Sequence record: MW741821.1
Source of the DNA: Escherichia phage vB_EcoP_DE5
DNA: 64,000 nt
Reading direction: 5' to 3' (one strand)
Shown here piece by piece: positions 56,690 to 59,874 of the stretch; positions within the stretch are counted from its first letter, which is position 1, and every line of letters starts with the position of its first letter. The position numbers and the translations under genes are program-made. A model generated the notes under the pieces. That model was not told the origin of the DNA. It ran no database searches and was given only the letters and a program-made list of their open reading frames with translations.

Positions 56690-57525
56690 TCTCTATCCAA
56701 CCATGTCCAATCAAATAAATCTTCCGGAGTCTGACCAACAAAGAGCAGCCTAGCATTCTCAAGCATCTTCTCTTCATCTTCAGTATCGAACTTCTTATAA
56801 TATTCCATTCGTACTATATGATACATGGTCCACTTATCTGTAACATCAGCTAGTAATTTAGCTGCTGCCTTCTTCCCTATACCTTGACGTCGAAGCTGAA
56901 GTTTACCACCCCACATAACCTCTTTACGTTCCCCACATCCGGGGATATTATCTGTACCATCTCCAATCAACATCTGATAGAAGAAGTTTTGCCATGAAAC
57001 TAAATCAGATACATAGTGAGGAGGAACTTCTTTCTGTCTTTCTCCACAAGCCCAACGGTAGTGCCATCCGGGAGTTATCAACAAATCCTTGTCTCTAGTA
57101 CAGATGATAGTGTTCTTATCCCTACGTTGCCTTTCAGCTAGTGCATCATCAGCCTCTCTCCCAAATACATCTATGTATTCATATTTACCTTTAATATAAT
57201 CACCAACATTTTGCCAGTGAAAAGGTCTCTCTCCGGGAGGTCTATTTGCTTTATAGTCTTGCTGCTTAGCAACATCAAAACGGAAGTTACCACCTTCGCT
57301 GAAGTAGAACACAACCTTGCTGCAACCTGAGCGAGCAATGATTGTATCTATCTTGTACTGAAGTCGTTCAATCATGAAATTGTAATCAACTGGAACACGT
57401 CCTGTGTCAAGAAAGGGATGCTCCTGAGTAAGAGCACCCACTTCATATCGAAGAACGTCAGCATCCACTATAGCAACTTCAGGGAGCTTAACTTCTTCCA
57501 TAAATATCATCCTGAGCTTGTGCAA
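56683..57525 (-). CDS. 5'-3' exonuclease / flap endonuclease (RNase H-like)
   Basis: IGDGTDNIPGCG motif characteristic of phage 5'-3' exonucleases. Confidence 0.6.
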   Translation of the reverse strand: MHKLRMIFMEEVKLPEVAIVDADVLRYEVGALTQEHPFLDTGRVPVDYNFMIERLQYKIDTIIARSGCSKVVFYFSEGGNFRFDVAKQQDYKANRPPGERPFHWQNVGDYIKGKYEYIDVFGREADDALAERQRRDKNTIICTRDKDLLITPGWHYRWACGERQKEVPPHYVSDLVSWQNFFYQMLIGDGTDNIPGCGERKEVMWGGKLQLRRQGIGKKAAAKLLADVTDKWTMYHIVRMEYYKKFDTEDEEKMLENARLLFVGQTPEDLFDWTWLDREW

Positions 57526-58387
57526 TAATCCAATCTAGATCTGATACTGCTGATTCAATAGTTGAGTCATTAAACAGTAGATATGTTTTTCTCTGTTCGC
57601 CTTCAATATATGAGCGAGAGTCTCCATCAAAAGAGCAACCATCTCTAAGAACTTGGACAACTTGGACATGGAAATTCTTTTCTAGTTCTCGTACCTCTGC
57701 ATCAAAACCTCCGTCAGTAAACACGACAATATCATCCTGACCTAGCCCTTCTTGTTTGATGCTTTTTACAGCAAGATCCCCCATATGATTGTTGCCAAAC
57801 ATAGGTTTTAAGAAGTCTTCACTTGTAGAAATCATCAAATCTCTTACAGACTTCCCTCCCCATTCTGGTCTAGGTTTTTCTTTCCATTCACGGTCTTCAT
57901 AGCGTGCTAGAAAGTTTTCTAGAGGTATGCCTAGTGCAGCAGCAGCTACCTTGTACATTGGCTCCTTGAAGGATTTGGTTGAATAATTGTGATGGTATGA
58001 ATGGGCATTAACCCAAGCATTGGCTATCGTATCTTTACCACAACCCGGAGGCCCATTAAGAATTACTACTAAAGGCTTATAATGGGAATCTCCCACCATA
58101 TTGGTCAGTGCTGGATTGCCTTGAGATTCCATTTCTAATTGCTCCGTGTGGTCATGTGAGTAGTCTATTGGAGAAGTTTTGTTACCAGTAACTTTAGGTA
58201 AAATCGCTCTAGTTGTTTCTACGTATTTACCGCCATCAATATTGATTTGAAACTCTACAAGCTCATTCTGTAACTCATATCCTGATAAGTTGGATAGCTC
58301 CTCCAACTCATCTCTGACGAAATTTAAATGTTTGATTTTAATTGCAAGAGCTTTCTTTAAAGCTTTTACCTCTTCATTCATTCCCAC
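57488..58387 (-). CDS. P-loop nucleotide/nucleoside kinase-like protein (start probably internal)
   Basis: Walker A LVVILNGPPGCGKDT. Confidence 0.5.
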   Translation of the reverse strand: MGMNEEVKALKKALAIKIKHLNFVRDELEELSNLSGYELQNELVEFQINIDGGKYVETTRAILPKVTGNKTSPIDYSHDHTEQLEMESQGNPALTNMVGDSHYKPLVVILNGPPGCGKDTIANAWVNAHSYHHNYSTKSFKEPMYKVAAAALGIPLENFLARYEDREWKEKPRPEWGGKSVRDLMISTSEDFLKPMFGNNHMGDLAVKSIKQEGLGQDDIVVFTDGGFDAEVRELEKNFHVQVVQVLRDGCSFDGDSRSYIEGEQRKTYLLFNDSTIESAVSDLDWIIAQAQDDIYGRS

Positions 58388-58770
58388 TCTCCAGTGATTT
58401 CCATATCGGCTTTATCTCCTTTCTTAGTAAGGAGAATTGCTGGTTTATTCTTACTCTTCATATACTCAAACATGTGCATAGAGCCTCTTGACTCCCCATC
58501 CCAGAAGACTATCACTGCATCTGCATACTCCCCCATATCTACGTTTCTAAGTATCCCAGCCTTTTTGCCGAGAGTGTTCCATGAAGGAATGAAACGTTTG
58601 ATGGGTATGTCATTGTGCTTAGCAACAGCCTCTCCGTGAAGATCTGGCCCTCTTGCACCACCTGATACAACTTCTGAAATCAGCTTGGGGATTTCCTCTG
58701 GAAGCAAAGCCCACATCTGAGTAAAAGAATGCCAATCTATCGACCGGCTTCCTGCGATTATTACTTTCAT
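58378..58770 (-). CDS. SLOG/DprA-like Rossmann protein (DUF2493-type)
   Basis: [10 protein letters not shown]...AGILRN...FWDGESRGS pattern. Confidence 0.5.
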
Positions 58771-59414
58771 GTAATCAATCCTTGAAACTCTTCTTTATCG
58801 AAGTGTTTTTCTACCACATATTCATACAGATCTTTTAACTCTGCATATCTGCGGTAGAATGTTCCGTGTGACATTCCAATGGTTTTCTGAATGTGATCGT
58901 GTGGTATTCCCAAGAAGATCATAGAGAACATATTGGCTAACTTCTGAGTATCCATCGTATCACTTAAATCTTGGAAGAAGTAGAAGATACGAGACTCCAT
59001 GAATGGATCTCCAACAGAATCTTGCTTATCCATAGCAATCTCTAAAGGACTATCAACCATATCAGGAGTACGGAACATATCAGCCTCTGGAATTGAGTAG
59101 ATACGACGGTCCCCTACAGTCTGCCTATTTGAACGTATAGACCAGATAATATTCTTGACTCGATAGGTCATATGCTCTTGGTCTTTCTCATCCTCTAGGA
59201 CTCTCTCATCCTGCTTAGCGAAGACAAATCTCCAAGCATTCAAGAGCACTTCCTGTGCCACATCCTCTGCTTCATGGTAATCCCTGATATCGTACATGAA
59301 GAACTTGTGAACCACTTTCCAGTTCACCTTATAGAACTCTTCATAGTTTGAGATATATTTGATTTGGATTCCATGAATTCGATATCTTGTAGGTGTTGTT
59401 TTCTTCGCCATCAT
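58767..59414 (-). CDS. sigma-70 family sigma factor (phage-encoded)
   Basis: Region-2-like [13 protein letters not shown] and C-terminal region-4-like HTH ([34 protein letters not shown]). Confidence 0.55.
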
Positions 59415-59433
59415 CTTTCCTTGTTGTTGGCTA

Positions 59434-59874
59434 TTATAAACAGATATAGACAGGTATGTCCATCTGATTTAGATACTTAAACATTATAGGTCTTACCTGA
59501 GACTGGTAATCTAACCCTCCGTTACCACAGCCTAAAGGTGTTATCGCCAAAGATGTTATACCCTTCTCTTTGTAGGTAAGTAGTAACTTTTGTAAACCTT
59601 GTTCTATCCACCCTATTTCTGAACTATTTCTCCAATGCTTCTTGGTTGGAAAACATAGTCCCAGCCTCCCATCATTTAGCCTCTGGAGGAGTAGTTGTCC
59701 AATCTGGAATCCTGAGTTGCAAGCAACTTTATATCTCTCAAAAGCTTCAGGGTATCTTCTTTTATACTCCTTAGCCACTCCTGCACCCATTACACCAACT
59801 AGGTTCACTGTACAGGTTACTGTTTGGACGTCCACCGTGAATATATTGGCTTTTCCTTCAAAAACAATAGCCAT
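59434..59874 (-). CDS. macro domain protein (ADP-ribose binding/hydrolase fold)
   Basis: [13 protein letters not shown] and [11 protein letters not shown] motifs typical of macrodomains. Confidence 0.65.

Follow-up and report, generated by a model that had tools for sequence, protein, structure and literature searches.

Escherichia phage vB_EcoP_DE5 (MW741821.1) carries, on the minus strand, a run of genes for a macrodomain protein, a sigma factor, a SLOG protein and a P-loop kinase. The window analysed here is a stretch of 64,000 nucleotides of this record. An original prediction had read the macrodomain, SLOG and kinase genes, which flank the sigma factor, as a plausible counter-defence module acting on nucleotide signals and ADP-ribose. 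The three open reading frames (ORFs) are real; they lie on the minus strand at the positions predicted, and all domain calls hold in profile searches and fold comparison. While this observation is confirmed, its interpretation is partly supported. On balance, the region appears to be part of a phiEco32-like middle-gene operon (genes 37 to 33) comprising an AdfM-like macrodomain, a sigma factor, a SLOG protein and a deoxynucleoside monophosphate (dNMP) kinase, rather than one dedicated module. Of these four genes the macrodomain alone looks like an anti-defence gene, and it is a credible counter-defence factor of the recently established AdfM kind.

A middle-gene cluster with an accessory macrodomain gene

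Over the 7.5 kb around the locus, identity is 97.5% with Escherichia phage EK5 and 96.6% with SkaterBoy_Bas90; SU10, ES17 and phiEco32 are closely similar too, and all of these are Kuravirus podoviruses (Gordonclarkvirinae). The gene order is that of phiEco32 genes 40 to 33, namely a hypothetical protein (gp40), i-spanin, o-spanin, gp37, the sigma factor gp36, gp35, the dNMP kinase gp34 and the exonuclease gp33, all on the minus strand (Table 1). In phiEco32, gp37 is annotated as 'Appr-1-p processing enzyme' and gp35 as 'GTP-binding domain'. Judged by its similarity, the sigma factor is gp36, a known protein whose function has been characterised (PMC8948821, PMC12276001).

Relative to phiEco32, the ratio of nonsynonymous to synonymous substitution rates (dN/dS) is 0.04-0.05 for the macrodomain gene, 0.03 for both the sigma and the SLOG gene, and 0.14 for the kinase gene. 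This range (0.03-0.14) indicates strong purifying selection; all four genes are therefore maintained as proteins.

The macrodomain gene is an accessory gene; macrodomain, SLOG and kinase genes are gained and lost independently in Gordonclarkvirinae and are not inherited as a unit. Of the records in the phage collection, 98 have the sigma protein, 68 the SLOG protein (at least 80% identity), and 40 the macrodomain gene by DNA comparison, or 43 at a protein identity of at least 60%. A query spanning macrodomain, sigma and SLOG genes is covered to at least 80% in 39 records, and many others match sigma and SLOG only, or sigma alone. In macrodomain-negative genomes, the o-spanin gene abuts the sigma gene directly. 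Within the BASEL phages, Bas90 and Bas91 have the macrodomain; it was not found in Bas87, Bas89 and Bas94. The kinase is present without the macrodomain in ES17, myPSH1131 and EcM-vB1; conversely, the macrodomain is present in Bas91, PGN6866 and ShigP1, where a nucleotide search did not detect the kinase. NJ01 and KBNP1711 have neither gene. This double loss had prompted the idea that macrodomain and kinase are coupled, which was rejected once the full lists showed each gene without the other.

The macrodomain gene also occurs outside this subfamily. A homologue with about 68-70% nucleotide identity is present in the unrelated 53-kb coliphages TH37 and DE15, the latter a Carltongylesvirus. In Escherichia phage vB_EcoM_DE15 (L174:4001-4441; about 68% identity) it closes a series of small genes for hypothetical proteins and immediately precedes the gene for the single-stranded DNA (ssDNA)-binding protein; sigma, SLOG and kinase genes were not found near it. 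The DE15 homologue thus indicates that the macrodomain gene moves between unrelated coliphage families.

Table 1. Genes and predicted transcription signals at the DE5 locus. Positions are those of the window; aa, amino acids.
Feature	Position	Strand	Basis and remarks
Gp36-type middle promoter element, exact, TAATGTATA (predicted)	61233-61241	-	About 60 nt upstream of the gene-40 homologue (60427-61173); corresponds to phiEco32 P40
Terminator-like GC hairpin followed by a T-run	60388-60405	-	After the gene-40 homologue; pattern match only
i-spanin	60019-60369	-	Annotated in EK5 and Bas90
o-spanin	59874-60047	-	Directly upstream of the macrodomain gene; annotated in EK5 and Bas90
Macrodomain, assigned as orphan DarG2-type and AdfM-like, 146 aa	59434-59874	-	Homologue of phiEco32 gp37; Pfam Macro 1.3e-10
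Sigma70-like promoter TGGACA-18-TATAAT (predicted)	59433-59462	-	Consensus match, 11/12
ECF-like phage sigma factor	58767-59414	-	Homologue of phiEco32 gp36 (99.5% aa identity); PHROG 1740 1e-45
YAcAr-family SLOG protein, 130 aa	58378-58770	-	Homologue of phiEco32 gp35; Pfam YAcAr/DUF2493; PHROG 289 2.5e-25
dNMP kinase-like P-loop protein	57488-58387	-	Homologue of phiEco32 gp34; start more likely ATG 58381; PHROG 139 2e-56
Kinase, N-terminal extension, about 100 aa	58079-58381	-	
Kinase, kinase domain	about 57488-58078	-	
5'-3' exonuclease (FEN/RNase H type)	56683-57501	-	PHROG 107 2e-64; Pfam 5_3_exonuc_N
Dam-type N6-adenine DNA methyltransferase, accessory	56177-56689	-	Pfam Dam 1.5e-48

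The macrodomain protein and its proposed role against DarT

The macrodomain protein matches Pfam PF01661 with 41.6 bits (cut-off 22), and more specific models place it with the DarG antitoxins. Its nearest structures in the PDB are those of DarG from Mycobacterium tuberculosis (5m3i, 1.7e-28) and Thermus aquaticus (5m31, 7e-25) and the entry 7omu (2e-26), with human TARG1 at 0.04. The NCBIfam model antitoxin_DarG is matched at 3e-42 (positions 5-144 of 338), and the PADLOC model DarG at 2e-45 (positions 6-142 of 329), compared with 0.011 for the MacroD/YmdB-type model NF001666. Both DarG matches are confined to the N-terminal macrodomain part; the DarT-binding half is missing from the short DE5 protein. 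In an alignment with DarG from T. aquaticus and M. tuberculosis, to the macrodomains of which it is 40-42% identical, and with AdfM homologues, the catalytic residues N24 and K78 occupy invariant columns. The corresponding active-site residues are N22/K80 in T. aquaticus DarG and N23/K78 in PhiKZ AdfM (PMC13309987). With the AdfM homologue of the PhiKZ-like phage OMKO1 the protein shares 41% identity (E 3e-35). In the phage collection, the relatives closest to it outside Kuravirus are macrodomains of jumbo phages, among them PhiPA3 gp108 and those of PhiKZ-like phages. By these sequence features it is specifically a DarG2-type macrodomain, and a free-standing orphan antitoxin domain. The database names 'phosphatase' and 'Appr-1-p processing enzyme' are misleading for this protein.

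A complete DarTG2 toxin-antitoxin system consists of a DarG of about 330-360 amino acids and an adjacent DarT (DUF4433). The DE5 protein differs from the DarG2 antitoxins of T. aquaticus, M. tuberculosis and enteropathogenic E. coli, with which it shares the active-site residues, in that both the C-terminal DarT-binding domain and an adjacent darT are absent, which makes it an orphan and not a toxin-antitoxin antitoxin. A profile built from 37 DarT-like proteins that adjoin long DarG-like genes in viral contigs detected no DarT-like ORF anywhere in the window, the best match having an E of 0.76. Both arrangements exist more widely. At 78 non-Kuravirus viral loci with a DarG-like macrodomain, 40 genes are short and stand-alone (143-197 amino acids) with no DarT nearby, and 30 are full-length DarG-like genes, 29 of which lie beside a DarT-like gene. 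Orphan erasers and complete DarTG systems are thus both common on viral contigs.

The macrodomain probably strips off the ADP-ribose that host DarT puts on phage DNA. In the proposed mechanism, a host DarTG2 system would release DarT2, which would ADP-ribosylate thymidines of single-stranded phage DNA and so block replication; gp37 would then hydrolyse the thymidine-ADP-ribose bond by means of N24 and K78, allowing replication to resume. Reversal of DNA ADP-ribosylation by a host toxin, one of the functions put forward in the original prediction, is well supported for the macrodomain because the protein is DarG2-type, orphan, intact in its catalytic residues and homologous to a validated AdfM. 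The same prediction's three-gene counter-defence module did not survive the pattern of independent gain and loss.

Direct precedents come from other lytic phages. AdfM of PhiKZ (gp104; Cell Rep 2026) removes the ADP-ribose that DarT2 attaches to DNA, rescues DarT2 toxicity and is needed for plating on DarTG2 hosts (PMC13309987). The T4 macrodomain Tk.4, also termed 'AdfM', is conditionally essential on E. coli with DarTG2 (2025 preprint, bioRxiv 10.1101/2025.11.20.689424), and E. coli strains are known to carry DarTG2-type systems (PMC7003065). Like these proteins (PhiKZ gp104/PhiPA3 gp108, T4 Tk.4), the DE5 protein is a free-standing DarG2-like macrodomain of a lytic phage that retains the catalytic Asn and Lys and has no DarT partner. 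There are also differences. DE5 is a podovirus of 77 kb that forms no phage nucleus, and nuclear import is hence not involved; the insertion of about 10 residues that follows helix 3 in PhiKZ and PhiPA3 AdfM is absent; the gene is found in only about 40% of the subfamily; and the anti-DarTG2 role, substrates and defence phenotype proposed for DE5 are drawn from strong, specific homology. T4 Tk.4 was not recovered by tblastn of the phage collection and appears to be more distant in sequence. The orphan NADAR protein AdfN of T4-like phages, which counters DarTG1 (PMC11825919), embodies the same strategy, in which a phage gene supplies the enzymatic half of the antitoxin and this erases the ADP-ribosylation of DNA, but has a NADAR rather than a macrodomain fold and acts on guanine rather than thymine. 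AdfB of ICP1 was considered as a further precedent and set aside; it is reported to neutralise DarT, likely by direct interaction, and is not known to be a macrodomain.

Several points weigh against this reading. A literature search combining Kuravirus and DarTG returned no paper, and DarTG was not part of the phenotyping of Gordonclarkvirinae in the BASEL study. The BASEL authors speculate about covalent DNA modification in these phages, for example deoxyuridine (dU) in place of thymidine, which, if true, could alter DarT2 targeting. A nucleotide search of 5,426 complete E. coli genomes returned no relative of the macrodomain gene, a result that excludes recent capture from an E. coli darG. 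SLOG-macrodomain fusions, discussed below, suggest that a view of the genes as independent parts may understate their functional link. Finally, macrodomains of the TARG1/DarG class can act on protein-, RNA- and phosphate-linked ADP-ribose, and the substrate in vivo is hence not fixed by homology.

In a different assignment, the macrodomain would act on ADP-ribosylated protein or RNA (made by a host defence ADP-ribosyltransferase or during host takeover), or on metabolites such as Appr-1''-p or O-acetyl-ADP-ribose, the latter in keeping with its older name 'Appr-1-p processing enzyme'. In phiEco32, SU10 and EK5 the protein is annotated as a generic macrodomain, which is compatible with this assignment, as are the weak TARG1/OARD1 matches (E 0.04), and TARG1, a related macrodomain, accepts several substrates. 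The assignment nevertheless seems decidedly unlikely: matches to DarG-specific models are better than those to MacroD/YmdB-type models by 30-40 orders of magnitude; the annotation of the first 50 kb of phiEco32 lists neither a phage ADP-ribosyltransferase nor a Tpt1-type gene for RNA repair, just as a DarT-like ORF is missing from the DE5 window; and two independent AdfM studies found a phenotype specific to DarTG2.

If the anti-DarT role is confirmed, gp37 would extend the AdfM macrodomains from nucleus-forming jumbo phages and T4 to small podoviruses. The Kuraviruses ES17 and SU10 are under development for therapy against pathogenic E. coli. The natural presence of the gene in some BASEL phages (Bas90, Bas91) and its absence from others (Bas87, Bas89, Bas94) offers a ready comparison for DarTG2 sensitivity.

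The SLOG protein and the kinase

The SLOG protein matches Pfam PF10686 (YAcAr) marginally, with 28.8 bits against a cut-off of 28.2; most of its homologues have a precomputed match to the same family. These homologues are stand-alone proteins of 110-140 amino acids with the invariant motifs AGSR, SGGARGxDxxGE, RN and WDGxSxG. A sequence search against the PDB gave only noise (hepatitis E virus ORF2, YlqF), and a search with the family profile gave a weak match to DprA (E 0.016), so that a comparison of folds was needed. The AlphaFold2 model (pLDDT 92.8) has a predicted SLOG fold of the Rossmannoid type in which the glycine-rich ligand loops are conserved, and its top Foldseek matches are ShosA and Helicobacter pylori DprA. 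On the strength of this model, the SLOG call is confirmed and the protein appears nearest to the YpsA/DprA branch. With members of that branch (PF10686; Bacillus subtilis YpsA, 2nx2; ShosA, 8zva; DprA, 4ljk) it has in common the Rossmannoid SLOG fold as well as the glycine-rich motifs GxD/E and RN. DprA and ShosA carry SAM and winged-helix domains, whereas the DE5 protein is a minimal domain with neither. DprA itself binds ssDNA and loads RecA. The DE5 protein is not a DprA as such; the PF02481 Rossmann domain is not matched, and the additional SAM/DML1 domains are absent. The names 'GTP-binding domain' and 'chromosome segregation protein' found in databases are misleading for the SLOG protein; the present assignments correct these as well as the names attached to the macrodomain. 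In some ICP1 isolates, a SLOG domain forms part of the accessory helicase HelB.

To our knowledge, no function or ligand has been established for any YAcAr member. The DE5 protein would be a small ligand-binding Rossmannoid protein, with a nucleotide, an ADP-ribose derivative or ssDNA as candidate ligands. Its net charge, about -1 by residue count, is roughly neutral, and a classical ssDNA binder is therefore not favoured.

At 78 non-Kuravirus viral SLOG loci, with families named by reading representative sequences, the commonest neighbours within 6 kb are the ribonucleotide reductase (RNR) large subunit (23 loci), a flap endonuclease (FEN)-type exonuclease (21), a metallophosphoesterase (21), ThyX (18), an HNH endonuclease (13), a family with uracil-DNA glycosylase-like and DNA polymerase 3'-5' exonuclease-like motifs (12) and a MazG-like pyrophosphatase (10). 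The neighbourhood of SLOG genes is thus one of nucleotide metabolism and replication, as in DE5, and not of anti-defence. The SLOG protein is probably part of the phage's toolkit for nucleotide supply and replication.

The kinase can be placed in the same toolkit. It is a P-loop kinase with a predicted T4 gp1-like fold; T4 gp1 (PDB 1DEK), a dNMP kinase, is the closest fold, with 19% identity and a sequence-profile match limited to the P-loop region (E 0.0017). A characterised close homologue was not found. The family is large, with 2,827 relatives among 1.8 billion representatives, mostly of 185-200 amino acids and matching residues 104-291, and with homologues in 1,454 phage records. Compared with T4 gp1, the DE5 kinase has an additional N-terminal region of about 100 amino acids without a detectable family. 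A Pfam search with these N-terminal 100 residues returned nothing, and the extension (PHROG 26149) is rare among the 2,827 relatives. It recombines separately from the kinase domain; some Kuraviruses match one part only, others the other. Phosphorylation of dNMPs would be the predicted activity, and an enzyme of the T4 gp1 type would feed dNTP synthesis alongside the exonuclease, the phage thymidylate synthase and dCTP deaminase.

Phosphorylation of a non-canonical dNMP, as part of a modified-nucleotide pathway tied to the dCTP deaminase and nucleotidyltransferase genes or to the amidoligase genes, is a very unlikely alternative for the kinase. T4 gp1 does phosphorylate hydroxymethyl-dCMP in T4, the DE5 enzyme has its unusual N-terminal extension, and the BASEL authors report resistance to restriction-modification and suspect covalent DNA modification in Gordonclarkvirinae. 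No such modification has been demonstrated, however, and the kinase is missing from some Kuraviruses (NJ01, KBNP1711), which is unexpected for an essential modification step. Kinase homologues are moreover widespread, for example in Drexlerviridae-type (T1-like) siphoviruses.

Neither protein, then, bears out the original prediction's placement of SLOG and kinase in a nucleotide-signal/ADP-ribose module: the SLOG gene neighbours RNR, FEN, ThyX, MazG and polymerase genes, and the kinase is T4 gp1-like and lies in a replication cluster. There is no sign that cyclic signalling nucleotides are degraded or sequestered. SLOG and kinase as a conserved pair can also be rejected, as a kinase homologue occurs within 6 kb at none of the 78 SLOG loci outside Kuravirus.

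A residue of the module idea survives in fusions of YAcAr SLOG and DarG-like macrodomains in both orders, and in their adjacency in Agricanvirus. At locus L031:6001-6801 (IMGVR_UViG_3300008144_000003), a 266-amino-acid protein combines YAcAr (residues 1-122, 2.6e-52) with a DarG-like macrodomain (122-263, 8e-57) in which the Asn and Lys motifs are intact. A database search found such SLOG-Macro fusions in 12 clusters (P0241-P0252) on viral contigs of 100-200 kb; in contigs closely related to these, the macrodomain is a separate gene of 146 amino acids. The opposite order occurs in an independent protein, P0268 (272 amino acids; Macro 18-128, YAcAr 156-223). In the Agricanvirus jumbo phage Deimos-Minion of Erwinia (NC_041972.1 114016-115373; L173:3517-4874), a macrodomain gene (gp157, 148 amino acids) is followed by gp158 (293 amino acids), the C-terminal half of which is YAcAr-like, and a putative UvsX recombinase (gp155) lies two genes upstream of gp157. 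Fusions of SLOG to Macro and NADAR domains were noted earlier by Iyer/Aravind, who proposed that they process soluble ADP-ribose signals (PMC9503650, PMC7824862). The recurrent fusion is a testable handle on a very common phage family.

The link between SLOG and macrodomains is real but partial. A macrodomain ORF was found within 6 kb at 3 of the 78 non-Kuravirus SLOG loci, the other 75 having replication and nucleotide-metabolism genes instead, and a SLOG ORF was found at 2 of the 78 macrodomain loci; the fusion at L031 is among these cases. Two accounts of the link can be considered. In the first, macrodomain and SLOG protein, possibly with the kinase, would form a coherent counter-defence module for soluble NAD-derived signals; the SLOG protein would bind or cleave messengers of the cyclic ADP-ribose type (Thoeris-like), leaving the ADP-ribose products to be processed by the macrodomain. 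Both the original prediction and the comparative-genomics proposal just cited take this direction; the fusions in both orders and the Agricanvirus adjacency agree with it, and in Kuravirus 39 of the 40 macrodomain-positive genomes are also SLOG-positive. Around 28 Kuraviruses, however, have the SLOG gene without the macrodomain gene, so that this nesting may merely reflect phylogeny. The characterised members of the DarG2 class (DarG2, AdfM) act on ADP-ribosylated DNA, and neither the sparse macrodomain context of SLOG genes nor the missing kinase link outside Kuravirus fits such a module. The probability of a soluble-signal module is accordingly slight.

The second account stays with DNA. Since the orphan erasers of the Macro (AdfM) and NADAR (AdfN) type both remove ADP-ribose from DNA, YAcAr SLOG proteins may take part in the handling of ADP-ribosylated ssDNA. 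They may partner DarG-like macrodomains against DNA ADP-ribosylation by binding ssDNA, ADP-ribosylated ssDNA or the released ADP-ribose, and by targeting or stimulating the eraser. Gp35 and gp37 would then be a split two-component anti-DarT system. The widespread SLOG proteins of phage replication modules would sense base-ADP-ribosylated DNA or serve in its repair, and would not process soluble signals. The two independent fusions of opposite order, the adjacency near UvsX in Agricanvirus and the DprA/ShosA-like fold are hints at a partnership of this kind. It is a speculative proposal and an unlikely one. The SLOG protein, which is sometimes fused to DarG-like macrodomains, may have an auxiliary part in DNA ADP-ribosylation or react to it; it clearly also works without a macrodomain.

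Transcription signals and neighbouring genes

The genes of this cluster are middle genes in phiEco32, where promoters of the gp36 holoenzyme consist of a single element, tAATGTAtA, found upstream of genes 6, 13, 26, 40, 58 and 68 (PMC8948821). The promoters considered here are predicted, from consensus matches and the literature, and only exact copies of the gp36-type element at published positions were used. Allowing one mismatch was dropped as a marker; 21 matches were found where 21.4 are expected, so that the relaxed motif is not enriched.

The predicted sigma70-like promoter sits in the 3' end of the macrodomain gene, ahead of the sigma gene, its -10 element covering the macrodomain stop codon. 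A promoter driving gene 36 has been predicted at the same position inside phiEco32 gene 37 (PMC8948821). Sigma and SLOG genes, and SLOG and kinase genes, overlap by ATGA; kinase and exonuclease genes overlap by 14 nt, exonuclease and Dam genes by 7 nt, and the o-spanin stop and the macrodomain start by 1 nt. From these start-to-stop overlaps, sigma, SLOG, kinase and exonuclease genes form a tight operon, with the macrodomain gene a short way upstream of the promoter predicted for the sigma gene itself. Co-transcription with the sigma factor, which the original prediction had assumed for all three genes, is thus right in part: the overlaps join SLOG and kinase, together with exonuclease and Dam, to the sigma gene, and the macrodomain gene lies ahead of the predicted promoter.

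The exonuclease is annotated as such in EK5, Bas90 and phiEco32 too. The Dam gene is shared with EK5 and missing from phiEco32 and Bas90, a further presence/absence polymorphism of the same operon. On the other side of the macrodomain gene, the spanin genes (59874-60369) give an Rz-like spanin match (PHROG 1152, 4e-37). They adjoin the macrodomain gene in the leftward middle-gene cluster, while the holin and endolysin genes of phiEco32 are far off, in the rightward structural-gene cluster.

Further upstream, the intergenic region ahead of the gene-40 homologue (61223-61322) contains exact copies of TAATGTATA on both strands, the listed one on the minus strand and another on the plus strand (61305-61313), along with near-copies; the plus-strand copy points away from any obvious gene. 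Elsewhere in the window, an exact gp36-type element on the plus strand (50539-50547) overlaps the first ATG of a listed ORF of 1488 amino acids (50541-55007). The phiEco32 gp26 homologue has 1473 amino acids, and the true start of the DE5 ORF is probably at MANIKPWEE near 50586, which would place the promoter about 40 nt upstream.

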